Source: Escherichia phage AV108
Strand: one strand, 5' to 3'
Sequence record: OR352938.1
DNA: 64,000 nucleotides
Shown: piece by piece, positions 1 to 15,233 of the stretch
Numbering within the stretch: position 1 is the first letter of the stretch
Layout: every line of letters starts with the position of its first letter
Position numbers and translations under genes: made by a program
Notes under the pieces: generated by a model
Databases searched by the model: none
Seen by the model: the letters and a program-made list of their open reading frames with translations, nothing else
Told to the model about the DNA's origin: nothing

Positions 1-1937
1 TGTTTACCGAAATTATCAAGGAAGTCAACAAGTTTTTCGGTATCATCGAAACGGTCTTCCCCGCCAACCTTATCAACAACATTGTTAACCAGCACATAAA
101 CGGAGTCAGTATCACAATAACGAACATATGCAAAATCAGTTGTTCCACAAAGCTCGTTTAAGTATTCGTTAATCTTACGCTCAATCCACTGAATTGCAAG
201 CTGACCGAACAGTGTGATCGCACTAGCGTTACGGAGATCATAAAAACGGAATTTAGGATTCCCCAACGCACCATAAAGGGAGTTGATCAAAACTTTTCGA
301 GAAAGCTGGTTTGTATTGCACAAGATCGACTCGTCTTTACATTCTTCCAGCAATTTCTCTAAGGCATCTTTACTTAATGCAGAAAGCATCGATTTAAACG
401 CTTCATCAAAGTCGTGACGCACTTCAACGCTATAGCTAATGGTTCCCCCATAAACATGATTTTCATCGTGTAGAATCGCTTTACATAGTTCAGCATTGCG
501 ATCACATGCCAACATCATGTTTTTGTACTGCTTGCGCTGGTCGAATACCTTTTTAATCTCAATCGGTACGATACCATGAATATCTTTTCGATACATCCAC
601 CCGTTAGGCGAGCAAGAATACTCATCACTCGGACGTGGTGCAGTTTTATTGATATATTCGTGCATCGGTGCAGCATCAAAAGATCCAGCGATTGTTTCAG
701 GCGAAATATTAACCTGTCGAATAATAGATGGGTACAGACTTGTTAAGTCAAAGCTCATCATCCAACGGTAAGCATTCGGCACAGGTTCTTTTACGAATGC
801 GCCCGGATAGGTCTGCTTAGGCTGTATCTTGTTCTCTGGTACTACTTTACCCTCAGCTTTCAGAGATCCGAAGATAATAGCATCCCATACTTTCATCGGG
901 TTATAAACATGGTTAAATTTAATCTTTGCATAGAAACATAGGCTATACACCAGATCAATAAAACCACGCTTTTTATCAATCGCCAGAACACGATCAACGT
1001 CGCCGATGTTATAATCGATGTAAAGTTGATGGTTGTCATCACGCAATTTCTTTAACGGACCATCATAATCAACCTTACCTATTCCGGTCTCATATTCAGC
1101 AACATAATCTAAGGCATATGTTGGTTGAGTCGTAAAGCTAAATTTCTTGTATAAGTCAATGTAATCAAGGCTTTCGATCCCCATGATCGTAAAGGCTTCA
1201 CGCTCGTTGCCAAAATCATCCTGTGAGATTCGGGATTTAATCTTACCGCACGGGCTTAGACGGTTGGCGGTTCTACTTCCGAACTTATTACTGATACGTT
1301 TAATGATATACGGAATATCGAATGTTTCTGTGTTCCAGCCAGTGAAACCAACGGGTCGGTTTTCCTCAAAGAATCGGATGTATTCTAACAGCAATTCATC
1401 TTCTGTGTCATAAACGTTATAAACAACGCGCTCTACAATATCAGGTCGAAGAATAGACTTGCTTGCTTCCCAGATTTCACCGTTTTTTCCTTTCAAATCA
1501 AATACAAAGAAACGATCATGTACGGAATCATAATGCGTAATTGCATCGATAGGATATTTCGCTTCTTCTGGTTTAGGAAATTCCGGTGCAGTGACCTCGA
1601 TATCAACCCATGCTACACGGATTTTATTTCGGTCATATCGAATCTCGCCTTTATATGTATCGGACAGATAGGAGATGATAAAATCATCCATCCCTAGTGC
1701 CTCCTGCCCCATTTCTCCCATCTTTTTACGCCATTTGTTGGCCTCGTTCATAGATGGGAATTTTTTAGCAATGCAAGGCTTGCCATAGATATCTTTATAA
1801 TTCGTAACCATACCAGGCGCGGCATGATGAAATAAAGTTGGCGTATATTCAACGTAACGCTCTTGTTCTTGTCCAGCATCATCAATATAACGCTCGTAGA
1901 TCTTATCACCCACTCGCTCACATGACAGAAAATACAT
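1..1937 (-). CDS. 43: DNA polymerase gp43 (family B), N-terminal ~645 aa; gene continues beyond window start
   Basis: Long minus-strand reading frame from ATG ~1937 (MYFLSCERVGDKIYERYID...) colinear with T4 gp43 N-terminus (remembered sequence); GAAGGAG RBS upstream; runs off the window edge. Confidence 0.9.
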   Translation of the reverse strand, partial: MYFLSCERVGDKIYERYIDDAGQEQERYVEYTPTLFHHAAPGMVTNYKDIYGKPCIAKKFPSMNEANKWRKKMGEMGQEALGMDDFIISYLSDTYKGEIRYDRNKIRVAWVDIEVTAPEFPKPEEAKYPIDAITHYDSVHDRFFVFDLKGKNGEIWEASKSILRPDIVERVVYNVYDTEDELLLEYIRFFEENRPVGFTGWNTETFDIPYIIKRISNKFGSRTANRLSPCGKIKSRISQDDFGNEREAFTIMGIESLDYIDLYKKFSFTTQPTYALDYVAEYETGIGKVDYDGPLKKLRDDNHQLYIDYNIGDVDRVLAIDKKRGFIDLVYSLCFYAKIKFNHVYNPMKVWDAIIFGSLKAEGKVVPENKIQPKQTYPGAFVKEPVPNAYRWMMSFDLTSLYPSIIRQVNISPETIAGSFDAAPMHEYINKTAPRPSDEYSCSPNGWMYRKDIHGIVPIEIKKVFDQRKQYKNMMLACDRNAELCKAILHDENHVYGGTISYSVEVRHDFDEAFKSMLSALSKDALEKLLEECKDESILCNTNQLSRKVLINSLYGALGNPKFRFYDLRNASAITLFGQLAIQWIERKINEYLNELCGTTDFAYVRYCDTDSVYVLVNNVVDKVGGEDRFDDTEKLVDFLDNFGK

Positions 1938-1969
1938 AATATAAACTCCTTCACTTACGAAAGACACTC

Positions 1970-1998
1970 ATTATAGGGGAATCGACTTAGTTTGTCAA
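1970..1998 (-). promoter_or_regulatory. sigma70-type early promoter upstream of gene 43 (TTGACA-N17-TATAAT)
   Basis: Minus-strand reading: TTGACA aactaagtcgattcccc TATAAT, about 40 nt upstream of the gp43 ATG. Confidence 0.5.
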
Positions 1999-2019
1999 TA
2001 CCCCTATCCCATCAGTATC

Positions 2020-2382
2020 TTAGCGTCCGATCTGATATTTCTCGATCAGCGTCCACTCTTCTTTCTGTTTGAAAGACAGTACACGGAAATTATTAACTTC
2101 GGTAGTTTCAAAATCACTATCAATCAGGGTACACAGATTCCACTGCGCAAGAAGTTTTGCAATGTTATTACGGCGCAATTCATCTTCCCACGTCATCTTA
2201 ACACTACGACCATCTAATTTCAACAACTCCTTGAAATGAACGATGTAATAGCGCCCTTTCTTCTGGAGAATATGACAAGACTGATACAGAGTCTTGTCTC
2301 GATTGTTGGCAATGCCGCAGCGGGTTAAAGTCTCCTTAATTTTAAGGAAGTTTTCAGGACTAATCAAATTAATTTCAATCAT
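2020..2382 (-). CDS. regA: Translational repressor RegA
   Basis: 120 aa, MIEINLISPENFLKIKETLTRCGIANN...FRVLSFKQKEEW; near-colinear with T4 RegA; conserved position between 43 and 62. Confidence 0.85.
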   Translation of the reverse strand: MIEINLISPENFLKIKETLTRCGIANNRDKTLYQSCHILQKKGRYYIVHFKELLKLDGRSVKMTWEDELRRNNIAKLLAQWNLCTLIDSDFETTEVNNFRVLSFKQKEEWTLIEKYQIGR

Positions 2383-2383
2383 T

Positions 2384-2962
2384 TTACCACCTTTCTATAA
2401 TCTTTTTAAGTCGTTTCCTTTCTGTCTGATTCTTAGTAACACCCGCCAAAAGTTCATCGGTCGCATACGGTTTAATGTGCTTCAATAACTTGTCCATATA
2501 TCCCTTTTCATTAGCCAAATCGAGATAAAACCTGGCGTCATCCATATTTACACAATATGCTTTCGCCACTGCCATTAAAACCAATTTTTGGTCCAATTCT
2601 TCTGTTAGTTTAGCCCATTTACCGTATCGTTTCCCCTTAGAAATACTCTGTAAGAGATAATCAAAATGCATTTGATCTGGGAGGCCATGACCGATTAAAT
2701 TCATCACATACGAGCTATATAGGCAATCTGCGTGCTGGGAAAGAGCGGTGTTAATCCATCTCTGGTTATATGCAGAATTATTCCCAACATTAACGCGCTG
2801 TTTATCTAAGGTGATATGATCCATCAGAGCAAATAATGCATTGTCGGTTTTCTCGGTGAACGTGTCCGCTAGTTCAGACACTTTTTCCCAATCACGAGAG
2901 CGCCATGCAATTTCATGCTCGTTTAATTGTGTATCATCTTCACCGAAAAATTGACCTAACAT
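2384..2962 (-). CDS. 62: Clamp loader small subunit gp62
   Basis: 192 aa; QLNEHEIAW...YGKWAKL motifs match T4 gp62; synteny 45-44-62-regA-43. Confidence 0.8.
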   Translation of the reverse strand: MLGQFFGEDDTQLNEHEIAWRSRDWEKVSELADTFTEKTDNALFALMDHITLDKQRVNVGNNSAYNQRWINTALSQHADCLYSSYVMNLIGHGLPDQMHFDYLLQSISKGKRYGKWAKLTEELDQKLVLMAVAKAYCVNMDDARFYLDLANEKGYMDKLLKHIKPYATDELLAGVTKNQTERKRLKKIIERW

Positions 2963-3936
2963 TATACGAACTCCAATTCAACCATTAATTGCATTAACAA
3001 AAAGACAATGTGAATCTCTTTATCAGCCGCGTGCGCAAACATCTGATTATTTTCACCGATAATCTCAGTGAGACGAATAATAGAAGCTGGCTTAACTTGA
3101 GTATACAACTCATTATAAAGTTTCTTGACAAATTGAGCGTATGTATTGGTATAGCGTGGCGCGAGTTTACGCACATTAGCAAACTGTTTAGTTTTAAGTG
3201 CTTCCACCACATCGGTTACTTCGGTATTGCTACTTTCGATAACCATGCTCAATACGCCAGCATCAATTTTACCATGTTTAGCGTAGCGGTCCAAAAGTTT
3301 CATTACGCGCCGGAAGTCTGGGAAGTTCTGCTTAACCAGTTCCGCCAATACGCGCATTTCTTCTACTGGCACACCTTCTTTATCAAGAATTGCTTTACAC
3401 CGGACGATCATTTCTTTCATCATGCGAAGCTGATCATCTTTAGTCGGAGATCCAAACGTGATGGGATCAAATCGAGATCGTAACGCCGGGATAATACCTT
3501 CTAGATCGTTTGCTGTGATAATGAATGTTACATTGTTTGAGTATGCCTCAGAGAAACTACGCAAGTGTCTTTGAGCGTCAGCCAACCCCGCTCGGTCATA
3601 CTCATCGATAATAACAACTTTGCCTTTTTCTCGTTTTTCTTCATCGAGTGATACACTCTGCGCAAAGCGTGTAATCTCATCGCGGATAAAATCAATCTTA
3701 CAATCTGCGCCGTTAACAAACAGATAATCAACACCCACATCTTCGCAAAGCGCCTTAGCAACGGTTGTTTTACCAGTACCCGGCGATGGGCTATGCAGAA
3801 TCATTGAAGGGATTCGGCCTTGCTTAACAATCTGCGCGAAGATCTTTTTATCTGCTTCCGGCAGAATACATTCAGAAATTGATTTCGGACGGTATTTCTG
3901 TTCCCACTGAAACTCATTTTCATTAACACTCAGCAT
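2962..3936 (-). CDS. 44: Clamp loader large subunit gp44 (AAA+ ATPase)
   Basis: Walker A SPSPGTGKTT, Walker B VIIDEYD, EQKYRP N-terminus as in T4 gp44; start placed at MLSVNENEF with GAGGTGA RBS (track start 3951 is inside the RBS). Confidence 0.9.
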   Translation of the reverse strand: MLSVNENEFQWEQKYRPKSISECILPEADKKIFAQIVKQGRIPSMILHSPSPGTGKTTVAKALCEDVGVDYLFVNGADCKIDFIRDEITRFAQSVSLDEEKREKGKVVIIDEYDRAGLADAQRHLRSFSEAYSNNVTFIITANDLEGIIPALRSRFDPITFGSPTKDDQLRMMKEMIVRCKAILDKEGVPVEEMRVLAELVKQNFPDFRRVMKLLDRYAKHGKIDAGVLSMVIESSNTEVTDVVEALKTKQFANVRKLAPRYTNTYAQFVKKLYNELYTQVKPASIIRLTEIIGENNQMFAHAADKEIHIVFLLMQLMVELEFV

Positions 3937-3963
3937 ATAATCACCTCTCACAAATTACATCAT

Positions 3964-3989
3964 TAAAAAGGGGAGTATTTACACTCCCC
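3964..3989 (-). terminator. Rho-independent terminator between genes 45 and 44
   Basis: Minus-strand GGGGAGTGTAAATACTCCCC hairpin followed by TTTTT. Confidence 0.55.
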
Positions 3990-4001
3990 ACAAACATTAT
4001 A

Positions 4002-4688
4002 TTAGTCGGTGTAGCTGGAGTCAAGGTCACACGCGATCATATAAGATACGGTTTCACTTGCCAGCCATACAGCCTTACGGCGAGTGAAGCTCAGTTTGTA
4101 ATCGCCGAAGTCAGTAGCAACCAGTTTCATGTTATCTTTACGAATAAAGAAATGGAAGTCTGCGGTTCCGGTATATTCGCCCATATCAAGACAAAACATC
4201 TCATTAGGATTATTTTTGTCAATCTCTTCCCAACCTTTGATCATCAGACGACCATCAATCGGAAGAAATTCAAGGCGATCCACTTTAAGCTGATTGCTCA
4301 TTTTCATAAGCTGTTTCAGATCGTCGTTGCTCAGTTCGTAATCTACATCGCTTGCAGGTGGAGTAACTCGGCCTTTCGGTGATACGATAGCAGCAGCACT
4401 AGCACCTGGATAATTAATTTTCAGACGATCATTAGACACACGAATGTTACCAGTGCGGTCATCAACCGTAATATCTGCTTCATCGCCTACCAGATTCAGA
4501 ATACCCAAGAAAGAGTTAAGATCATAGATCCCAATTTCGTGTTCCAGTTCTTGATTCAGAGTCGCTTCACCATAGACAACGTTTGTCATGTTTTTGGTGA
4601 TCAGGACGTTTCCTTTTTTCAGGATGATACCTGGGTTAATAGCGGAAAAGTTTTTCAGGGTAGCAATGGTTTCTTTAGTCAGTTTCAT
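4002..4688 (-). CDS. 45: Sliding clamp gp45
   Basis: MKLTKETIATLKNF... matches T4 gp45 N-terminus and length (228 aa); ATG at 4688 with GGTGA RBS (track start 4691 is TTG). Confidence 0.85.
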   Translation of the reverse strand: MKLTKETIATLKNFSAINPGIILKKGNVLITKNMTNVVYGEATLNQELEHEIGIYDLNSFLGILNLVGDEADITVDDRTGNIRVSNDRLKINYPGASAAAIVSPKGRVTPPASDVDYELSNDDLKQLMKMSNQLKVDRLEFLPIDGRLMIKGWEEIDKNNPNEMFCLDMGEYTGTADFHFFIRKDNMKLVATDFGDYKLSFTRRKAVWLASETVSYMIACDLDSSYTD

Positions 4689-4718
4689 CAAATCACCTTT
4701 ATCATGTTAATCAATTAA

Positions 4719-5111
4719 TTACGGGTTTACTTCGTGCTCATTTTGAATCTTTAGCATTCTTTCGATAAATTTTTTCTCGGCTTCCTTGTCGGATGAGTGA
4801 GTATACTTCAATCCAATGTAAGCTGTCAAGTATTGTTGCAGAGCATAGACAGTAACAGGATTCTTTGCGGTCTTTTTGCCGTCGAGATATACCAGATCAC
4901 CACGAACATCAAACGCAAGTTTACGACGAATCACATCATCAACAAATTTATCTAGAACAAAATACCACTCAATACACTCTATCCCGTGACGGTAGTTCAT
5001 TACATCATTATCTTTGATATAGTCAAACGGAATATGACATAATTTACTATTTTGTAGGATGAATAGCATTTGTTCTTTTAAGCTCATACGTTTCATTCTA
5101 TCACTTCCCAT
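4719..5111 (-). CDS. RpbA-like RNA polymerase-binding protein (by synteny only)
   Basis: ~130 aa ORF immediately downstream of gene 45 as rpbA in T4; start uncertain (TTG/ATG alternatives). Confidence 0.35.
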   Translation of the reverse strand: MGSDRMKRMSLKEQMLFILQNSKLCHIPFDYIKDNDVMNYRHGIECIEWYFVLDKFVDDVIRRKLAFDVRGDLVYLDGKKTAKNPVTVYALQQYLTAYIGLKYTHSSDKEAEKKFIERMLKIQNEHEVNP

Positions 5112-5478
5112 CAGCAATTGCGATCAGACGAGTTACTACTACGCTAGCGGCTTCAATCAGCAGTTCATCAGTGTCAATCTGATAACCTTTTTCGAGAATA
5201 TCTTTACCTCGAACAGTTTTAGAGCCTTTAGCAATTGAATCATCGTAATACTTGCGCATTGCAGCGATCCATTCTTTTTGCACCATATCATCAATATGCG
5301 CGTACAGTTCAAAGCGTGTTTGCTGCGGGATAACCTTCATTTTAGCTTTCTCGCTTTCCGGCATTTGTAGTACCCACGCTTTACGGATCTTGTTCATTGC
5401 TCGGTCAAATTCGAGGCTGGTTTTCTTGTTCTGAATGTCTGCTACAGTAATTTTAGCCAGGTTTGCGGAAGTAGTCAT
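5101..5478 (-). CDS. Hypothetical protein
   Basis: Track ORF; ATG at 5478 preceded by GGAG RBS. Confidence 0.5.
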   Translation of the reverse strand: MTTSANLAKITVADIQNKKTSLEFDRAMNKIRKAWVLQMPESEKAKMKVIPQQTRFELYAHIDDMVQKEWIAAMRKYYDDSIAKGSKTVRGKDILEKGYQIDTDELLIEAASVVVTRLIAIADGK

Positions 5479-5508
5479 AATATTAATCTCCAAAATAAAA
5501 TCAGTATA

Positions 5509-5739
5509 TCACGTTCTAAAGTTTGTTGCAACCCCAGCATCAGGGTAATCAAGTTTATCAAAGTTGGGGACCAGCATAAACTCATGATGACGACAAGACA
5601 ACATTTTTGTTATGTCTTCATCGCTGTATATGCTGTTTTTCATATCCCCCATACTAACTACATATTCTTCACCGGAATATAGATTGATTAAGGTATACAA
5701 TTCTAACTCCGGCTGCGTTACTCTGTCAAATGTTAACAT
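5509..5739 (-). CDS. Hypothetical protein (76 aa)
   Basis: Track ORF in operon orientation, compact spacing. Confidence 0.45.
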   Translation of the reverse strand: MLTFDRVTQPELELYTLINLYSGEEYVVSMGDMKNSIYSDEDITKMLSCRHHEFMLVPNFDKLDYPDAGVATNFRT

Positions 5740-7408
5740 TCATTTCAGTGAATCGCCCACGTTTAACCATCTTGAGATGACGGCTAAAATCATCAGGGTT
5801 ATGGTCACGATGGCTGATAATATACACGTTATCATCTAACTTGTCAATGATGGAATCAAGTGCTTTTACGCCTTGAACGTCCGTAGCCCCATCATAAATT
5901 TCGTCGAGTACCAACAAAGAAATATTAGTACCAGATACTTTACCAGCAACATCACGCCATGTAAAGAGCATCGCAAGGTCAATACGTGCTTTTTCGCCTT
6001 GACTGAATGATGTATACGAAAACGATTCACGCCCCCGTGATTTGATTGTTTCGTTAAACTCTTCATCTAGCGTAAAGATATAATCCGCTTCCATGATATC
6101 TAGATAATACGCAATCCGATCATTGAAATATGGAATATATTTCTTGACGATAGACGCCTTAACACCGGAATCCTTCAACATTTCTGTTACAAATCCACGA
6201 TGATATTTTTCAAGAACTAGCTTTGATTTTTCATTAGTAATCTCTACCAGTTCGTGTTCCAGTTTAGCAAGTTCTTCGGAATTGTCAACCCTTTCTTTTT
6301 GTAATTCCTGAATTGCTTTCTGGATCTGTTTAGCCCGACCTACAGATGCCGTTAAATTCGCTCTCAGTGACTCTATAGCGCGTTTAATTTCCAAGACCTT
6401 AGTTTGTGCTGTCTGGAAAGAATTGGCTTTCTCTGCGTATTCTACGCGTTTCTCGTCAATCAGAGACAGTTTATGTTCTGCTTGTGCTTTTTGTTCGCGT
6501 ACAGCTTGATCATTACCCTGAATGATCGGTTGTGTGCACGTAGGACAGATCCCGCCTTTCTCGTGCATATGGATAACACGATCAAAGTTCTGGATCTGTG
6601 CACCAATCTGTGCGATAGCCGTATTAATTTTAGCCAATGTCGCGCTAGGATCTTCCGGCATAACAGCAGCCAATAGCTCATCGGTCAAGCGCGTTTCTTC
6701 GGCTTTAAACGCTTTAGCTGATTCTACTTCTTTCTCGTACATATTCTGCAAACGCTGTAGATTCTCGGCACTCGCCTTGCTAGCGTCTTCTATGTACTTT
6801 TTATGAGTGTTGATTTGTTGCTGAACGTGATTAGCTTTCATTTCCTGCATTTGGATATTCTGGGTAATCTCGCGCACATACGCTTTATTCAGTTTATCCA
6901 TTTCGCCTAGCGTAGCAATATCAAGCAAATCCTCGACCAGTTTACGGCGACCCGCTGCCGGAAGACTCATAAACGGAACATAACCAGCAGTGCCTAAAAC
7001 AACGATCTGTTTAAAGCTGGCTAGGTTCATGCCTATGATACCTTCAAAATATTCCTGAAAGTCTTTGGTGCTTGCGCTCTCGTCGATCTTTTGACCGTCG
7101 CGATGCACTTCGAATACTTCCGGTTTTTGACCACGTTTGATATAAAACTCTTTCCCGTCCAGTTCAAACCAGACTTCGACTAACAGTTTCTTTTTGTTGA
7201 CGCTGTTAATCAATTGGCCTTTCTTGATACTACGAAACGGTTTACCGAACAACACAAAGCAAAGCGCCTCAATCATGGTCGATTTACCAGCACCGTTAAC
7301 ACCAGTGATTAGTGTCTTTTTGAATCCGTCTAGCTGAATCTCTACAGGTTCAGCACCCACGCTCATTATATTTTGATAGCGCAAGGTTTTAAAATTTAAC
7401 TTTGCCAT
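5726..7408 (-). CDS. 46: Recombination endonuclease subunit gp46 (Rad50/SbcC-like ATPase)
   Basis: Walker A GVNGAGKST, zinc hook CPTC, ABC signature SQGE, Walker B LLVLDE, C-terminal RGRFTEM; colinear with T4 gp46; start at MAKLNFKTLRYQNIM with GGAG RBS. Confidence 0.85.
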   Translation of the reverse strand: MAKLNFKTLRYQNIMSVGAEPVEIQLDGFKKTLITGVNGAGKSTMIEALCFVLFGKPFRSIKKGQLINSVNKKKLLVEVWFELDGKEFYIKRGQKPEVFEVHRDGQKIDESASTKDFQEYFEGIIGMNLASFKQIVVLGTAGYVPFMSLPAAGRRKLVEDLLDIATLGEMDKLNKAYVREITQNIQMQEMKANHVQQQINTHKKYIEDASKASAENLQRLQNMYEKEVESAKAFKAEETRLTDELLAAVMPEDPSATLAKINTAIAQIGAQIQNFDRVIHMHEKGGICPTCTQPIIQGNDQAVREQKAQAEHKLSLIDEKRVEYAEKANSFQTAQTKVLEIKRAIESLRANLTASVGRAKQIQKAIQELQKERVDNSEELAKLEHELVEITNEKSKLVLEKYHRGFVTEMLKDSGVKASIVKKYIPYFNDRIAYYLDIMEADYIFTLDEEFNETIKSRGRESFSYTSFSQGEKARIDLAMLFTWRDVAGKVSGTNISLLVLDEIYDGATDVQGVKALDSIIDKLDDNVYIISHRDHNPDDFSRHLKMVKRGRFTEMNVNI

Positions 7409-8773: not shown

Positions 8774-8814
8774 TCAATTTTAGATAGTATAACGGGGATT
8801 TCTCCCCGCGTCAA

Positions 8815-9840
8815 CTAACTTTTTGCGCTATTTACTTCGGCTAAAAGTTCATCAGAAATACGCTTGACCGCCGCAAGTTCTTCCGGTTCTAGGTTTTGTT
8901 CTTCCAGATATTCATAGACCATCTGAATAGTGCTTTTAACTTCAATAACACCTGTTTCCTGTGATGCGCTACTCTCCAGCTTATGGACCACTTTTAGCTT
9001 GTGCACAACGGCCTCTAACGCGCTTTCTAACTTAGTTAACCCATTATCAGCAACCGTTGCGATAAGACGCACACTAAGCCCCTTAAAGCGTTCTACATCG
9101 ATCTTATCATCTGACGGGTAAGTGATACGCACATGATAAGTTTTGTCATTCTGGATAAACTCTTTTTTGTGTGTATCGGTATCGAATACCCAAAACCCAC
9201 GCGGATCGTTTTCGTCACCCGCCGTTAGTGTGTATGGTGTACCAATATACGTTACGTTACCGCCATCGCTGATAGTATGAAAATGACCAGAAAACACTTC
9301 ACGGTATTTCTTGAGAAAGTCCGCGCTATAACCTTCGGATTTTAGCCCTTTATAGAAATAGTAACCGGACAATTCCCAATGGCCTACACAATATTCGCTG
9401 AATGAGTTTTGAATAAACTCTAAAATCTCTGATTTATTGTCATCGCAAAACCACGGAAACAGATCAAATGATACACCATCAAAGGTAACTGTTTCCGGCT
9501 TATCAATAACTTTAATACAATCATATTGGCTTAACACTTCACGCGGTGCGTTAGGCTGGATCTTGTTTCGTTTAAACATATCATGGTTCCCGACCGTGAT
9601 ATAACAAGTAATACCAGCCTCTTCCAGTAGCGGGATGACCTTAGTACGGTTAAATTTCATGGTTTCATGGGTAATTGCTTTTCGGCAATCAAACCAATCC
9701 CCTGTTTGAATCCATGTCTTAATATTATGCTCTTTGGAGTATTCAACCGCCTTCTTGATGGTATCAAGAATATACTCATGCACCCACGGATCATCGCCAC
9801 CGATACCAGTATGCAGATCACCTAAAAGCAAAATTTTCAT
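8815..9840 (-). CDS. 47: Recombination nuclease subunit gp47 (Mre11/SbcD-like phosphoesterase)
   Basis: MKILLLGDLH, GDWFD, GNHD, GHFH calcineurin-like phosphoesterase motifs; length ~T4 gp47. Confidence 0.85.
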   Translation of the reverse strand: MKILLLGDLHTGIGGDDPWVHEYILDTIKKAVEYSKEHNIKTWIQTGDWFDCRKAITHETMKFNRTKVIPLLEEAGITCYITVGNHDMFKRNKIQPNAPREVLSQYDCIKVIDKPETVTFDGVSFDLFPWFCDDNKSEILEFIQNSFSEYCVGHWELSGYYFYKGLKSEGYSADFLKKYREVFSGHFHTISDGGNVTYIGTPYTLTAGDENDPRGFWVFDTDTHKKEFIQNDKTYHVRITYPSDDKIDVERFKGLSVRLIATVADNGLTKLESALEAVVHKLKVVHKLESSASQETGVIEVKSTIQMVYEYLEEQNLEPEELAAVKRISDELLAEVNSAKS

Positions 9841-9930
9841 AGTCTCTTCCTCTCTTCGTTTTCGATGCTCTCACTATATCACAGAAAAATAAAAAGGGAA
9901 ACCCCTTTCAGAGTCTCCCTTATAAAGCCA

Positions 9931-10218
9931 TTACAGCATACTTAATACCGTTTGCCGTGTACTAATCCACATAGCAGAAAGCAGTTCTGGCGTGTGTGGC
10001 TGTTTGTAGATATCACGTAATTTTCCGATAGCGTAGATATACGCATCACGATTATCATCGATGATAGCTTGTTCAGCCCACCGCTTAAGTCGTGCAATCT
10101 CTCGCGAGTTCTTACGCAAGATCTTTTCCGCTTTCTTAGCGGCTTTAGCCTCTAGTTCTGCTTGTACTTTGTCTACTTCATTCACTGCAATCTTGTCATG
10201 CTGTTCATCGTAAGTCAT
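9931..10218 (-). CDS. Hypothetical protein (95 aa)
   Basis: Track ORF; lysine-rich coiled-coil-like. Confidence 0.4.
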   Translation of the reverse strand: MTYDEQHDKIAVNEVDKVQAELEAKAAKKAEKILRKNSREIARLKRWAEQAIIDDNRDAYIYAIGKLRDIYKQPHTPELLSAMWISTRQTVLSML

Positions 10219-10219
10219 G

Positions 10220-10453
10220 TTATTTTACCTCTGGGATATAATCAATTATTAAAGAAAATTCATCTTCTGATACATTATAGCTATGTGAGATTGTACCCGT
10301 CAAGACCTCAAGATCCGGTGATTTGATATTGCACGGATCGATAATCACCGGAACGCCGCAATCTCTCAAAAATAATTTGGCGAAATACGGCACGAGGTCA
10401 GTTTCAAACTCTGCTTCTTCCAGCAAACGGGAAATGTTAATTTTCAATCTCAT
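10220..10453 (-). CDS. Hypothetical protein (77 aa)
   Basis: Track ORF immediately downstream of gene 55. Confidence 0.4.
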
Positions 10454-10970
10454 AAAATTGGTCCAGGCTAGGCAATTCCTCGGTCAATACATCTTCAACC
10501 TTTGGCGCTTTCGGTTTATTGACCGATTCCTCGTAGTTGTTGATTTTATCGTAAATGTCCTGTATGAATGCCTCATCAGCAATCTGGCACATATCAGCGT
10601 CGCGTTCGTCATATACATGATGCACAAAATATTTGTATTTTGCGGCTGTCGCTGTTCTCTCTTTTTTAATGCGCTGTACAAAAGCATTAAAGCACGCTTG
10701 CGTGATGTAAGCATGAGGATTTTTATACTTTGTCTCGTCAAAATTAATCAAACCCTTGACCGCCGCTTCGATTCCGTCGTCGATCATTTCTTCGCGCCAT
10801 GTTTGACTATAACCAGAAAAGTTAAAACGACGTGATAGATTTTTAGAGATTTGCATAATTGCTAGGCCGATTTGATCGCTCATTGGAACTTGCCGACCTT
10901 CTGCTGCAATTTGTTGTTTCCAACGGCAAATTTCTTCGTAAAGCTCTTTATTGTTTACATAATCAGACAC
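10437..10970 (-). CDS. 55: Late-transcription sigma factor gp55
   Basis: YVNNKEL...GLAIM...RFNFSGY...[27 protein letters not shown]...FIQDIYDK colinear with T4 gp55; GTG start with GAGGGTG RBS. Confidence 0.85.
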
Positions 10971-11010
10971 TTCGCACCCTCGCTATTATTTAGGAAATAA
11001 CCCGTTCGGG

Positions 11011-12480
11011 CTATTCCCCATTACCATTATACTTTCTTTGCTTAGTTATCCACACTCTAACCATCTCTACAGATTCGCCGTCAGACGGATCAAGAGTTTT
11101 TCCTTTTTTCTTCATGCGGTACTTAAATCCGTTAAATCTTGCATTCTCTTGCTCGTTAAAGTCGAACATCTTTTTAAATGATTTTCGCCCTTTACGCTCA
11201 CCGCATTCTAGCGGAATCATTCGGTCTGTTATTACATTGGCATTAGGCAGAAACGTTTTTAGATAATCAACCAACGCCCAATCAGGAACATATAGATTAA
11301 CATTCTCCTTGCTCTCGTTGTCTCTCAGGTTACAACGCAAACATAATTGAAATGCTGGTTCCAGATAATCAGACACATGACGCGCTTTCAAAAACTCGTT
11401 TGTCGGGAGATCGCAACTATTAGCAAGACCTTTTAAAATATCAATCTCCCATCGTTGAGGGTTAAAGCTGAACATCACAGCAACATTTTTATGATGAATG
11501 TAAGAGTTAAGACCATAAGATCCGTAAGGTATCCGCTCACCAATACCATTTGTGCACGCTTCACGGTCCCGATTCACGGTATAAATGAAGTCATCACCAC
11601 ATTCATTTTTAACCATATCAACAAGACGTTCAAAGGTATTGTTTGTTTCTGACTGGTGACGCGACCATCGTTCGGAGTCCGTCATAAGGATGATATTAAC
11701 TCTATCTGTATTTTTATACTCTTTGAAATATAGTCTGGATTCTAGCGCACTAGGAACAAAATCGCAATTTGCATAGTATCGTAGATACTTCCCACTATAT
11801 GTATCAAAGAGATTTGCACATGCTATCGTAACCTTTTTAAAGTCTCCCCACGTACCGTGTTTGTTATCGTTCAAGAAAACAATTTTCGACCCATTCTTCC
11901 GGTGTCCTTCGTTATGTTTTACCATAACGTTGATTTTCTTCTCTAATAACGCCTCATAAAGCCCTCTAAGAGAAGAATCGATCATATCAGTACCATCCTT
12001 TGCACTTTCTATCTTTTCTTTGATAGCGGCCTTCTCAGAGTCTTTTAGAACTAAGTTCTGTAGGCATTCCGATTCGTCGGCGATTGGTTCGCAATGCTTC
12101 GTGATAAGTTCAAGATTAGACTTAAACGGATACTCATTAAATTCAACCAGTTGAGGAACTTCATCAATGTAAAGAGCATATTCACCAAACATTTTTGAAC
12201 GTTCCATATTAGATAACGCTGTATGTGTAATGAATATCACATCAGCACCATCTTTAACTGATTGCATTATAGACGCTTGCACTGTCTTAAGGCTTCTTAG
12301 TCTTGTGCTATCAATCAAGACAGCACGACCGCCCATTCTTTTAAACTTATTGTAAGATTGTTCACTTAAAACACGAGATGGCGAAGCAATAACCGCTTTT
12401 TCTTTTGTCTCTAGGACGTGGGAAAGTATAGCATCAGTTTTCCCCGCCGCTGGCAATGCGATTAATGTTTCAATCTTCAT
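11011..12480 (-). CDS. P-loop NTPase of unknown function (489 aa)
   Basis: Walker A ALPAAGKTDA near N-terminus, Walker B-like LYIDEVP; sits where T4 carries alpha-gt/47-55 accessory genes; not similar to T4 alpha-gt as remembered. Confidence 0.5.
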   Translation of the reverse strand: MKIETLIALPAAGKTDAILSHVLETKEKAVIASPSRVLSEQSYNKFKRMGGRAVLIDSTRLRSLKTVQASIMQSVKDGADVIFITHTALSNMERSKMFGEYALYIDEVPQLVEFNEYPFKSNLELITKHCEPIADESECLQNLVLKDSEKAAIKEKIESAKDGTDMIDSSLRGLYEALLEKKINVMVKHNEGHRKNGSKIVFLNDNKHGTWGDFKKVTIACANLFDTYSGKYLRYYANCDFVPSALESRLYFKEYKNTDRVNIILMTDSERWSRHQSETNNTFERLVDMVKNECGDDFIYTVNRDREACTNGIGERIPYGSYGLNSYIHHKNVAVMFSFNPQRWEIDILKGLANSCDLPTNEFLKARHVSDYLEPAFQLCLRCNLRDNESKENVNLYVPDWALVDYLKTFLPNANVITDRMIPLECGERKGRKSFKKMFDFNEQENARFNGFKYRMKKKGKTLDPSDGESVEMVRVWITKQRKYNGNGE

Positions 12481-12785
12481 TAGAAACCCTTACGTCGTGC
12501 TTTCTGGCATTTCTTGATCATTTTATCAGAAATTTCGCGCTTAGGTGCAATCTCTTTCACACCGAAAGCACTAATGCCAAATTCAGAGAGAATATATTCA
12601 ACCAACAATTCACGCACACGCGCTTTACCGATATTCACGCCGTTATTTTTCAGATATGTCTGACCTTCGACTTGCATCAGATCTAAGTCTGCGTCGGTAA
12701 TATTGATTTCTTCCATGCGCCCAAATCGAGAATAAACCATGTGTGCGATTGCATTGTGTACTAACATAATATATTCCTCACTCAA
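12480..12785 (-). CDS. Hypothetical protein (101 aa)
   Basis: Track ORF, ATGA-type coupling to upstream gene. Confidence 0.45.
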   Translation of the reverse strand: MSEEYIMLVHNAIAHMVYSRFGRMEEINITDADLDLMQVEGQTYLKNNGVNIGKARVRELLVEYILSEFGISAFGVKEIAPKREISDKMIKKCQKARRKGF

Positions 12786-12788
12786 GAA

Positions 12789-12947
12789 TTACTTAATGAT
12801 ACTTACTTTACCAGATCCGTGACAATGAGCGCAACACCCATCACCACGCAATCCTGTTCCGTTACAGTGTTTACACTTCTTCAAAGGTAAAGCCATTATA
12901 GCAAATAAAGCAATAATGAATACCGAAACTAAATTCTCAATAATCAT
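12789..12947 (-). CDS. Small membrane-anchored DnaJ-type zinc-finger protein (~52 aa; coordinates approximate)
   Basis: Hand-translated: MIIENLVSVFIIALFAIMALPLKKCKHCNGTGLRGDGCCAHCHGSGKVSIIK; hydrophobic N-terminus plus two CxxCxGxG repeats; below track size cutoff. Confidence 0.4.
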   Translation of the reverse strand: MIIENLVSVFIIALFAIMALPLKKCKHCNGTGLRGDGCCAHCHGSGKVSIIK

Positions 12948-13206
12948 AAATCGCCCTCAGTTCTTTATAGCCTCCAATGTGCTCGTTGTCAATGAATATC
13001 TGGGGGTATACAAACCGGAGGCTCTTTGAGTTCAGCCTCCCCGCCAGTTCTTCAATCATATCACGGTCGGGAATAATGTCAACCCCGACCTGCTTGAATA
13101 CTGGTTTAAGTGTATACGGAATACCCAGATCATCCAGTAGCTTCATTGCACTAATACAACCATAACAATGATAAGCCTCTTTCGGTATGCCGTATATCTC
13201 GATCAT
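12937..13206 (-). CDS. Glutaredoxin/NrdH-like redoxin (thioredoxin fold)
   Basis: 89 aa, CYGC active-site motif near N-terminus and C-terminal GGY motif typical of small redoxins. Confidence 0.6.
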   Translation of the reverse strand: MIEIYGIPKEAYHCYGCISAMKLLDDLGIPYTLKPVFKQVGVDIIPDRDMIEELAGRLNSKSLRFVYPQIFIDNEHIGGYKELRAIYDY

Positions 13207-13679
13207 TTCTCAGCCTTTAATCTTTCTAGTTCTTCTTCCAGTTCCTTGATCCGTTGGTCACGTTCAAAGTCACGCTGCAACTTAGTGGCAAATACTCGTT
13301 TAAACTGTTTGTAATCATCGATTTTAAACACTTCTTCTTCGCCATAGCGACGCACAGAAACTTCGTAGTTATTGAAGAATTGTTGCATCATTGCTTCGGA
13401 TGATAGTTCTGCTGATACCACTTTAAAATATTGATCTTCGGTCGGTGAAAACCAATTACAAGCATAAAGATAAACCTTTTCATTGTCTGGACACTGGTAA
13501 GCCTTACCATCGATTTCAATCACAGAAACATATTCAGGTATAGTCGATGAATCAATAGCTAAGACTTTAAACTGACGGTCCCCGATAAACTCGGAGATCA
13601 CACGATTCGCATCACTGGTTGCAAAGGCTTTACGCGCTTGTTCGCTTTTCCACTGATAGGTCATACCAACAACAAACAT
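13203..13679 (-). CDS. Paralog family protein (member A)
   Basis: Shares TYxWKSEQA-KAF and IEIDGK..(W/Y)F...ER.YF core with 7 other ORFs in window; C-terminal coiled coil; start at internal ATG with GAGG RBS. Confidence 0.55.
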   Translation of the reverse strand: MFVVGMTYQWKSEQARKAFATSDANRVISEFIGDRQFKVLAIDSSTIPEYVSVIEIDGKAYQCPDNEKVYLYACNWFSPTEDQYFKVVSAELSSEAMMQQFFNNYEVSVRRYGEEEVFKIDDYKQFKRVFATKLQRDFERDQRIKELEEELERLKAEK

Positions 13680-13680
13680 A

Positions 13681-14214
13681 TTACCAACCTCGCTCTTTAC
13701 CAATCAAAAATTCAACTTCACGACGTTTAATATCTTCTTGAAGGTCTTTAATCTTCTGTCGATCTTGCATGATTTCATCCATCTTGTCAAGTGCTGCAAT
13801 GAAATCATCGAAACGTTCAAAGGTTTTACCTTCATTTGCTTCGCTAAATTTAACCATAGTCAGACCGTAACGACTACTAAACAGACGTTTCAACTGTCCA
13901 ACGATCTTAGAATCAGTGGTTATAACTTCCAATTCTTCTACTTCTTGAAAGAATTTTCTATCAGAATCAATAAACCAGCTAGTTCCTTTATGGTTGCTAT
14001 CTTCGGTTGCACTCATTAGAGTATGGTCTTTACCATCAATTTCAATTACATCAATTTGCCCACATGGACTAACCTTTTTAACAGTAAAAGGTCTATAATT
14101 TATTGCTCGTGCAATAACATAATTAAGGTTAGATACGTTTTCAGCATAATGGCAGAAGTCGGTCATAGCATTCGCATCTTTCCAGGTGTAAGTTTTACCA
14201 ATTTCCCATTTCAT
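13681..14214 (-). CDS. Paralog family protein (member B)
   Basis: MKWEIGKTYTWKD N-terminus and IEIDGK core shared with neighbours. Confidence 0.55.
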   Translation of the reverse strand: MKWEIGKTYTWKDANAMTDFCHYAENVSNLNYVIARAINYRPFTVKKVSPCGQIDVIEIDGKDHTLMSATEDSNHKGTSWFIDSDRKFFQEVEELEVITTDSKIVGQLKRLFSSRYGLTMVKFSEANEGKTFERFDDFIAALDKMDEIMQDRQKIKDLQEDIKRREVEFLIGKERGW

Positions 14215-14226
14215 AATATATTCCCC

Positions 14227-14691
14227 TTAACCGATTTTATCAAGTTCGTTTAATGCTTTCTCTGCTTCCTGTATAGCTTGCACCCTTTCCGGCATTTTGT
14301 CAAGAAAATCTTTCAACTCTTCAAAACTGGAGATATGACGCAAGGCGTTAGCACCGATAGCCGCATGTGATTTGCATTCAAAGCGGATTTTATAATTATC
14401 CATCGCCAACTTGAGAAGATCAATTAATTTAGATTCTTCTGGAATAATAATTTCTTCAAATCTGCTACGGTCATGATCCAGAAACCAACAAGATAGACCT
14501 ACATCGGTTGAACTCATATAAGTTCCATCATGAAGATAAACAGACCGCACGTATCCTTTTTTCGCATCAACCGACGCAACTTTAAACGGTAATCGCAGAT
14601 ATTTCAAATAATCAACATCATACCATTTAAAAAATTGGTTTGCATCTTTTACATCTTTCCACGCATAGGTCTTACCAGCTTCCCATTTCAT
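14227..14691 (-). CDS. Paralog family protein (member C)
   Basis: MKWEAGKTYAWKD N-terminus (start at internal ATG); same family. Confidence 0.55.
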   Translation of the reverse strand: MKWEAGKTYAWKDVKDANQFFKWYDVDYLKYLRLPFKVASVDAKKGYVRSVYLHDGTYMSSTDVGLSCWFLDHDRSRFEEIIIPEESKLIDLLKLAMDNYKIRFECKSHAAIGANALRHISSFEELKDFLDKMPERVQAIQEAEKALNELDKIG

Positions 14692-14695
14692 AATA

Positions 14696-15223
14696 TCATC
14701 TCTCATTTTTGATACGTGATTCTAATTGGATCATACGGTCGCGCGTTTGTTTGTATTCTCGGATAGCACCGATCCGGCTAGGCATACCATCCAGTACGCT
14801 CTTAATACCTTCTAGGGTAGTAATTTTGGCAATGCTATTATGTAACCCCATCTTATCGATCAACTGAATGTCGTAGGCTTCCATAAGCAGACCCAAGCGT
14901 TCTAAAGTTAGGTCTTCTTCTTTTTCTTCCGAATCTGGAATCTTAGGTTCAATAGTAACTTCGGTAAAGAAACGACGCTCACCCGACCAAAACCACACGC
15001 CGGAACAACCAATAGGGGATTCTTTTAACGTCATAGAGTCGAAATTACTACCAATAATAGTAATTTCTCTAACATCACCATCATCGTCAAGGTCTTCTAC
15101 CCTAAACGGGCGACCAGCCAACAGGTCAACAATACATCTGTTAATAGACGACGAAAATTTAGTCAGTTCGGCTTTCGACGCTTCACATTCAATCTTGTAA
15201 GTTTTACCAACTTCCCATTCCAT
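14696..15223 (-). CDS. Paralog family protein (member D)
   Basis: MEWEVGKTYK N-terminus; same family. Confidence 0.55.
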   Translation of the reverse strand: MEWEVGKTYKIECEASKAELTKFSSSINRCIVDLLAGRPFRVEDLDDDGDVREITIIGSNFDSMTLKESPIGCSGVWFWSGERRFFTEVTIEPKIPDSEEKEEDLTLERLGLLMEAYDIQLIDKMGLHNSIAKITTLEGIKSVLDGMPSRIGAIREYKQTRDRMIQLESRIKNER

Positions 15224-15233
15224 AATAATCACC

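Follow-up and report, generated by a model that had tools for sequence, protein, structure and literature searches.

The window analyzed here, a stretch of 64,000 nucleotides from Escherichia phage AV108 (sequence record OR352938.1), encodes at 11011..12480 a protein of 489 amino acids (aa) that is, as judged by its predicted structure, a divergent superfamily 2 (SF2) helicase-type ATPase with an architecture resembling that of XPD and DinG helicases, and that cannot be filed as a member of the XPD/DinG family. We consider it fairly probable that in RB49-like and other non-T-even T4-like phages this helicase-like protein is an accessory helicase or translocase that helps to replicate or recombine DNA and has no role in DNA modification. 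The gene and all other window features named below lie on the minus strand, and its stop codon occupies 11011-11013.

The gene corresponds exactly to an open reading frame (ORF) of the program-made listing. Its translation opens MKIETLIALPAAGKTDA, contains the internal stretch EYALYIDEVPQLVE, and is 100% identical to its RB49 orthologue RB49ORF044c (AAQ15319.1), whose sequence has been in GenBank since 2003 and which carries the label "hypothetical protein" there, as does every orthologue record listed. A weak match to the DEAD/DEAH Pfam model (E 0.069) was given for RB49ORF044c by Nolan et al. 2006. PHROGs places the protein in phrog_2467 (E 9e-175), where the function is given as unknown, the NCBIfam scan of the 489-aa protein returned no family, and a literature search on phrog_2467 or Krischvirus/DinG found nothing specific. 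Because RB49ORF044c is identical and 243 phage records contain full-length orthologues (31-100% identity), with further metagenomic clusters beside them, the ORF is by its conservation a genuine gene and not a chance ORF. A Shine-Dalgarno-like AAGGG stands 5' of its ATG, which overlaps the stop codon of gene 55.2 in a TAATG (12478-12482), and its GC content of 0.39-0.40 is the same as that of the neighboring genes. The isolate is a Krischvirus, and positions 8800-12800 of the window are at most 98.9% identical in nucleotides to any deposited genome.

Motifs of an SF2 motor are spread over the protein and were evaluated in two alignments, A1 with 28 phage orthologues and A3 with 79 much more distant short relatives that have a mean column identity of 17%. 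Motif I, or Walker A, is ALPAAGKTDA at residues 8-17 (12430..12459), with G13, K14, and T15 invariant in A1 and K14 also in A3. It is followed by a motif Ia-like segment at residues 29-42 (AVIASPSRVLSEQS; 12355..12396), in which S33, L38, and S42 are invariant in A1; this segment can be compared with PTRELAxQ of DEAD-box proteins, and the PDB profile search pairs it with motif Ia of Mss116. Motif II, or Walker B, is LYIDEVP at residues 103-109 (12154..12174), of the DExx type and not D-E-A-D, and its D106 and E107 are invariant in both alignments. Next come an alpha/beta insertion of ~106 residues in RecA domain 1 (residues 110-215; 11836..12153), Arch-like in position, and the strand VTIACANL (residues 216-223; 11812..11835), in which T218 and N223 are nearly invariant in A1. 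From its position, we infer that this strand is motif III; the family consensus is (G/S/A)-A-N-(F/L), and "xANF" is also found in the long relatives described below.

The second RecA-like domain, delimited in the model at about residues 255-420 (11221..11718), has fold matches to the C-terminal RecA domain of SF2 proteins. It holds G323 and N325, which are invariant in A3 (HGLN in the family, YGLN here), an FS(F/Y)NP motif, and motif VI, FQLCLRCNLR at residues 377-386 (11323..11352). Motif VI reads Q-x3-R-x3-R and would supply the arginine fingers; Q378, R382, and R386 do not vary in either alignment, and the pattern recurs as YQxxMRxxLR in the long relatives. The basic C-terminal tail (residues 421-489; 11014..11220) is predicted to form a disordered linker and three helices, has 18 K/R and 10 D/E in ~70 residues with E445 and W477 invariant in A1, and could at a guess bind DNA or a partner. 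The conserved elements of A1 are G13-K14-T15, ASxSRxLSxQS (Ia-like), FITHxAL, D106-E107, (A/S)AN, GLN, FS(F/Y)NP, and FQLCxRxxxR, and only K14, D106, E107, G323, N325, Q378, R382, and R386 are invariant in A3. Except for G323 and N325, these A3 residues are, by the motifs in which they stand, those with which an SF2 motor binds and hydrolyzes ATP.

At the level of domain families, Pfam DEAD (PF00270) matches residues 11-130, the N-terminal domain only, with 27.4 bits against a gathering cutoff of 26, and it is found at E <= 0.1 in half of the 28 orthologues; Helicase_C has no Pfam match in this protein or in these orthologues. In PDB sequence searches, neither the protein by itself nor the 28-sequence profile gave anything meaningful, and the 79-sequence profile retrieved generic SF2 RecA1 domains (Mss116, PriA, reverse gyrase, XPB, and Mfd) at E values of 1e-5 to 1e-3. 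The sequence-only reading had correctly picked out a 489-aa protein with both Walker motifs and had proposed a P-loop NTPase, perhaps a nucleic-acid-dependent ATPase; the former is supported and the latter very probable. It had also seen no helicase motifs, a statement that has to be reversed, since DEAD scores above its gathering threshold, motif Ia, a motif III-like strand, and motif VI are present, and the predicted fold is that of SF2. Clear homology to a helicase in profile searches, which it had named as a finding that would refute it, is present at the superfamily level.

DEAD is the only Pfam family past its threshold, and the DEAD-box proteins Mss116, DDX52, and DDX42 are among the best PDB sequence-profile matches. 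Could the protein be an RNA helicase of the DEAD-box type, or an RNA chaperone, with phage or host transcripts as its substrate in mRNA processing, decay, or translation? We regard this as quite unlikely. Motif II is DEVP rather than DEAD, a Q-motif is missing, as the protein opens with strand beta1, the motif III-like sequence is CAN instead of SAT, and motif VI is Q-x3-R-x3-R and not HRxGRxGR. Moreover, when whole structures are compared, DNA helicases carrying an Arch insertion match best, and the relatives are fused to DNA primase-polymerases and stand beside integrase and AlpA genes of integrative elements.

An AlphaFold2 model built on A1 (predicted local distance difference test [pLDDT], 88.2; predicted template modeling score [pTM], 0.76) contains two RecA-like domains and the basic three-helix tail; between its Walker B strand and its motif III-like strand, an alpha/beta insertion takes up 106 residues. 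Foldseek searches of the PDB with this model, a check suggested along with the original annotation, put the SF2 DNA helicases XPD, CasDinG, Staphylococcus aureus DinG, and Rad3 on top, with E values of 3e-10 to 1e-6. In whole-protein structural comparisons, F. magna DinG scored 18.3 over 354 aligned residues, followed by XPD (18.1; 325), CasDinG (17.6; 320), and Rad3 (17.4; 326); other SF2 families (Ino80, CSB, HsdR, SecA, and XPB) reached at most 14.5 over about 240-255 residues, and T4 UvsW reached 12.2 over 162. DinG and XPD therefore align over 70-100 more residues than other SF2 helicases. In the model, these extra residues and the position of the insertion appear to correspond to the Arch domain that defines XPD/DinG helicases (PMC11981726), and the insertion is best described as Arch-like in position.

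The protein resembles XPD, Rad3, and DinG in its two predicted RecA motor domains and perhaps in the alpha/beta insertion that follows motif II in the first of them, at the Arch position, but it differs from them by its much shorter length (489 aa), by the lack of any sequence-profile link, and by the lack of an iron-sulfur (FeS) or pseudo-FeS domain between Walker A and Walker B, where ~90 residues form ordinary RecA elements in the model. The only invariant cysteines in A1, C130 and C380, are both outside this segment. DEAD_2 (PF06733) and Helicase_C_2 (PF13307) have no match at E <= 1 in the protein itself or at E <= 0.1 in the 28 orthologues, and no XPD or DinG chain is among the 60 best PDB matches listed for the 79-sequence profile. 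Lack of an FeS cluster is common to CasDinG and the phage protein, and the FeS domain is wholly absent also from sDinG in a published classification (PMC11981726). The fold weakly suggests a 5'-to-3' polarity as in XPD and DinG.

The resemblance to sDinG raises another reading. The short DinG-like architecture without an FeS domain is that of the cyanobacterial sDinG proteins, the ATPase competence of which has been doubted (PMC11981726), so the phage protein may likewise be a catalytically dead or non-motor SF2 scaffold with a binding or regulatory function, e.g., together with gp55.2 or gp55; the translational coupling with 55.2 through TAATG hints at such a partnership. This is very unlikely in our judgment, as the Walker A Lys, the Walker B Asp-Glu, and the Gln and both Arg residues of motif VI do not vary among 79 sequences whose mean identity is 17%. 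Unlike in sDinG, the ATP-site residues are fully conserved, and such invariance is the pattern expected under selection for ATP hydrolysis.

What do the relatives beyond phages look like? An exhaustive profile search retrieved 1,318 clusters (50% identity) at E <= 1e-3, of which 758 were at E <= 1e-10, and the 150 best matches listed fall into two size classes of ~480-550 aa and ~750-890 aa. The long forms are found in bacterial chromosomes (e.g., Bradyrhizobium and Belnapia), where they are annotated as "DEAD/DEAH box helicase family protein." They have a C-terminal extension of ~330 residues with SPAIFDP, LDFExGDL, NTYxHT...PRFRV, and SGLDxSKR, as well as a PriCT-like GxGNxxFF...SPxERxxQIPSIM, and this extension is, by its motifs, an archaeo-eukaryotic primase (AEP)-type primase-polymerase (PrimPol). 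Many distant relatives are fused to an AEP PrimPol, mostly with the helicase N-terminal and the PrimPol C-terminal, whereas a primase usually precedes the helicase in such proteins. Other relatives have the primase first, among them P0124, with AEP-like motifs at the N terminus, then the helicase and, by eye, a helix-turn-helix (HTH)-like tail. P0124 is the only large gene (1436-4069) on two near-identical contigs of ~5.0 kb from two assemblies (L017 and L018). These contigs might represent a minimal replicon, but as they have no terminal overlap and one of them ends in a Nextera adapter, they cannot be called plasmids. When a long relative was searched against a plasmid database, the only matches were three weak ones to Sinorhizobium megaplasmids.

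Several relatives are located next to genes of integrative elements. In two metagenomic loci (L009, 8168-12445; L010, 6023-10300), a P4-type integrase and an HTH_17/AlpA gene are followed by an ~800-aa helicase-PrimPol with a PriCT-like domain and then by cargo of a defence-like kind (PLD, Mrr, and an ADP-ribosylglycohydrolase/phosphatase). Another locus (L011) has an integrase, AlpA, a short form, and then DUF927, and in two more (L012 and L016) an integrase or a resolvase stands beside short forms. In the last of these, which is also metagenomic, positions 1529-6329 contain a resolvase, the short homologue P0053, a TIR-domain protein, and a tyrosine integrase, apparently a small element and a further case in which the helicase family moves along with recombinases and a defence-type gene. 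The slot right after integrase and AlpA is the expected place of the replication-initiator gene of an integrative element. Other settings are a 146-kb contig (L014) with mostly small unannotated ORFs and a phage-like look, and the chromosome of Bradyrhizobium sp. 172 (L008; fusion at 10001-12427), with no integrase within 10 kb and an ATP-dependent DNA ligase gene adjoining. Because relatives are fused to AEP PrimPol and several lie beside integrase and AlpA genes, these contexts point, by analogy, to a large family specific to mobile elements whose members would be replication-associated helicases.

The same islands, with their PLD, Mrr, and TIR genes, may also be read in terms of conflict, with the phage protein as an anti-defence or superinfection-exclusion helicase that acts on host or competitor DNA in the manner of CasDinG, DdmD, or Hna. 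These three are structural neighbors, and the gene is dispensable for a T4-type lifestyle, given the T-even phages without it. Nevertheless, no nuclease or other effector domain is present, and the best PADLOC match (E 0.009 over 60 residues) is to an unrelated DRT accessory model, none being significant. In the islands, the gene adjoins integrase and AlpA, in the expected replication slot, and is not among the cargo, and in the phages its syntenic position stays fixed across several genera although the proteins are just 31-44% identical, which is typical of vertically inherited housekeeping genes and not of defence or anti-defence loci with their fast turnover. We regard a conflict function as unlikely.

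A family of this kind has been predicted before. Kazlauskas et al. 2018 (PMC5862659) described a novel helicase family, pVOG1685/9714, in T4-like phages, with pVOG9714 most similar to UL9, and the helicase-like protein very probably belongs to it: it is a remote SF2-like helicase, it has AEP-fused homologues in mobile elements, and its closest phage homologues are T4-like. The search links run in both directions: in tblastn, the phage loci that P0124 matches best are exactly the T4-like ones, and a search with the T4-like profile recovers AEP-helicase fusions such as P0124 (E 1e-27). These fusions, with T4-like loci as their best phage matches, are what our set has in common with the published family; it differs in that most of the fusions found here have the opposite order (helicase, then PrimPol) and in that the phage proteins stand alone.

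T4 is the textbook model of phage DNA replication and has three well-studied helicases, gp41, Dda, and UvsW. In the reading that we prefer, that of an accessory DNA helicase, K14, D106/E107, and Q378/R382/R386 would bind and hydrolyze ATP at the interface of the two RecA domains, as motifs and model suggest; hydrolysis would drive translocation along single-stranded DNA, and the protein would work in replication or recombination beside gp41, Dda, and UvsW. Candidate activities are DNA opening for initiation or priming, fork restart, and removal of obstacles or R-loops. UvsW offers a parallel, being also an accessory SF2 helicase of ~500 aa that acts in replication and recombination of T4-like phages. 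In this phage group, uvsW, dda, and gene 41 count as core or quasi-core (PMC2993671), so that the helicase-like protein would be an additional, fourth helicase.

Several points weigh against this reading. For the family as a whole, activity as a helicase, the substrate (DNA or RNA), and the polarity are all inferred; the sequence profile is only generically SF2 and carries no XPD/DinG signal, so that the likeness to XPD and DinG comes from the predicted structure; and the replication role is carried over from distant relatives at 20-25% identity. The phage proteins have no PrimPol domain, no adjacent AEP primase was seen, and no iterons, tandem repeats, or origin-like repeats were found near the gene. 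The assignment to pVOG1685/9714 was made by published description and search links. Finally, the T-even phages do without the gene, and it is therefore inessential to the T4-type replication scheme.

A more specific alternative makes the protein a dedicated replication-initiator helicase, by analogy to UL9 and to the primase-helicase initiators of integrative elements, which would open DNA at specific sites through its basic tail and hand it over to the gp41/gp61 replisome; conserved translational coupling with gp55.2 could then link the helicase to control of DNA topology. T4 origins depend on R-loops and recombination, so if this alternative were true, non-T-even T4-like phages would have a protein-driven origin mechanism that T4 lacks. 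The herpesvirus origin-binding protein UL9 (PF02399) is likewise a virus-encoded SF2 helicase with a C-terminal part, which in UL9 binds DNA. It differs in that PF02399 (Herpes_ori_bp) had no match in the 38 family members scanned (the 28 phage orthologues and 10 distant relatives) and in that no origin-like repeats lie beside the phage gene, and origin binding by the phage protein is purely speculative. Because there are no iterons or tandem repeats near the gene, an adjacent origin is unsupported. We consider a dedicated initiator improbable.

Much of the T4-like radiation, with Krischvirus, Pseudotevenvirus, Tulanevirus, Ceceduovirus, Bragavirus, Roskildevirus, and other genera, has a fourth helicase-type ATPase at a conserved position, and what it does in non-T-even T4-like phages is a real but modest question. 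Since the motor module occurs in >1,300 clusters and is fused to AEP primase-polymerases in integrative elements, characterizing one member would be informative for, and help to annotate, a large family of replication proteins of mobile elements. In print, a weak helicase signature goes back to 2006 and the prediction of a helicase for the whole family to 2018, which makes the gain here incremental: it consists of a corrected map position, the structural assignment (an XPD/DinG-like architecture without an FeS domain), the family size, the recognition of AEP PrimPol as the fused domain of bacterial relatives in integrative elements, and the exclusion of a link to DNA modification.

The phage records listed are all T4-like, bar one partial match; the BLAST distribution, which had been proposed as a check, shows a gene conserved in RB49-like and other non-T-even T4-like phages and missing from T-even phages. 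Its immediate downstream neighbor is gene 55 in RB49, in the Aeromonas phages Aes508 and Assk, in Proteus phage PM2, and in Erwinia phage Cronus; in RB43, it is gene 34 instead. A 55.2 homologue is directly upstream in RB49, RB43 (with a 4-nucleotide overlap), PM2, and Assk, whereas in Aes508 and Cronus it is found 1-1.2 kb further upstream. T4 gp55.2 is reported to inhibit host topoisomerase I, and a functional pairing of gp55.2 with the helicase-like protein is conceivable; as deduced from adjacency, this pairing is weakened, as adjacency holds in four of six genera and the order 55.2...55 is ancestral T4-like synteny.

The gene is part of a minus-strand cluster of nucleotide-metabolism (nrd), replication, and recombination genes, and no late promoter TATAAATA was found near it. 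The best sigma70-like site in the region, at 13082-13055 inside nrdH, reads TTGACA-16-TATGAT with an extended -10 TG (11 of 12 matches) and has no annotation in RB49; it could be the promoter from which ORF046c, 55.2, and the helicase-like gene are transcribed early. Expression before replication is probable from this context.

In minus-strand order, the region reads nrdD, nrdG, four paralogous ORFs, nrdH (12937-13206, from the ORF listing and comparison with RB49), ORF046c, 55.2, the helicase-like ORF, gene 55, a-gt.5, a-gt.4, gene 47, and gene 46. Gene 55.2 (12480..12785; the start annotated in RB49 corresponds to ~12767) is directly upstream of the helicase-like ORF, and gene 55, for the late sigma factor (10437..10970), is its downstream neighbor and fixes its position. 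The interval between genes 55 and 47 (the latter at 8815-9840) is the alpha-gt slot of T4 and is occupied solely by a-gt.5 (10220-10453) and a-gt.4 (9931-10218). The sequence-only reading had put the ORF into this interval and had taken it for a possible DNA-modification enzyme, and from the absence of a recognizable alpha-gt it had suggested that the modification chemistry may differ from that of T4; the ORF in fact sits upstream of gene 55, between 55.2 and 55. The difference in chemistry is true of RB49-type phages and had already been published (Petrov 2010; PMC8056088), but it is unrelated to this ORF. These phages have no alpha-gt, beta-gt, or gene 42 (PMC2993671), and the T4 modification network is absent, so that cytosine is essentially unmodified (PMC2993671; PMC8056088).

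This background, together with a distance of no more than a few kilobases from the place of alpha-gt in T4, is what speaks for a DNA-modification enzyme or a stand-in for alpha-glucosyltransferase that would mark another modification chemistry. Position and fold, and the occurrence of the gene together with alpha-gt, effectively refute the idea, and we give it next to no probability. The ORF is outside the 55-47 interval, and no glycosyltransferase or modification family appears in the Pfam matches, the PDB sequence matches, or the top fold matches listed; the fusion partners of the relatives are primases and not modification enzymes. Likeness to T4 alpha-glucosyltransferase is limited to the same general quarter of the genome, while fold, motifs, and position (55-47 versus upstream of 55) are different, and both occur in Erwinia phage Cronus, which has an annotated DNA alpha-glucosyltransferase downstream of 55 in addition to the helicase-like gene. 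Gene 42, for dCMP hydroxymethylase, is listed in Aeromonas phages 44RR, 31, and 25 (Petrov et al. 2010, PMC2993671), and phage 25 also carries an orthologue (P0034). We therefore ruled out a distribution tied to the lack of hydroxymethylcytosine or gene 42: because phage 25 has the gene together with gene 42 and Cronus has it together with alpha-gt, the gene neither replaces alpha-gt nor tracks hydroxymethylcytosine, and on these gene contents it has no link to DNA modification.

Two further differences from RB49 were seen in the neighborhood. The gap between gene 47 and a-gt.4 (9841-9930) is a spacer of ~90 nucleotides where RB49 has RB49ORF040c, a 555-nucleotide HNH/AP2 homing-endonuclease gene, the absence of which appears as a 566-nucleotide indel in the blastn comparison; the isolate accordingly lacks this mobile endonuclease. 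On the other side, the four tandem paralogous ORFs (13203-15232; 159-178 aa; pairwise identity, 24-33%) are equivalent to RB49ORF048c-051c, with no known function, and most of them have an N-terminal W-E-x-GKTY-x-W motif. The copy of ORF049c in the window is ~250-290 nucleotides shorter than that of RB49, which suggests recombination inside the paralogue array.

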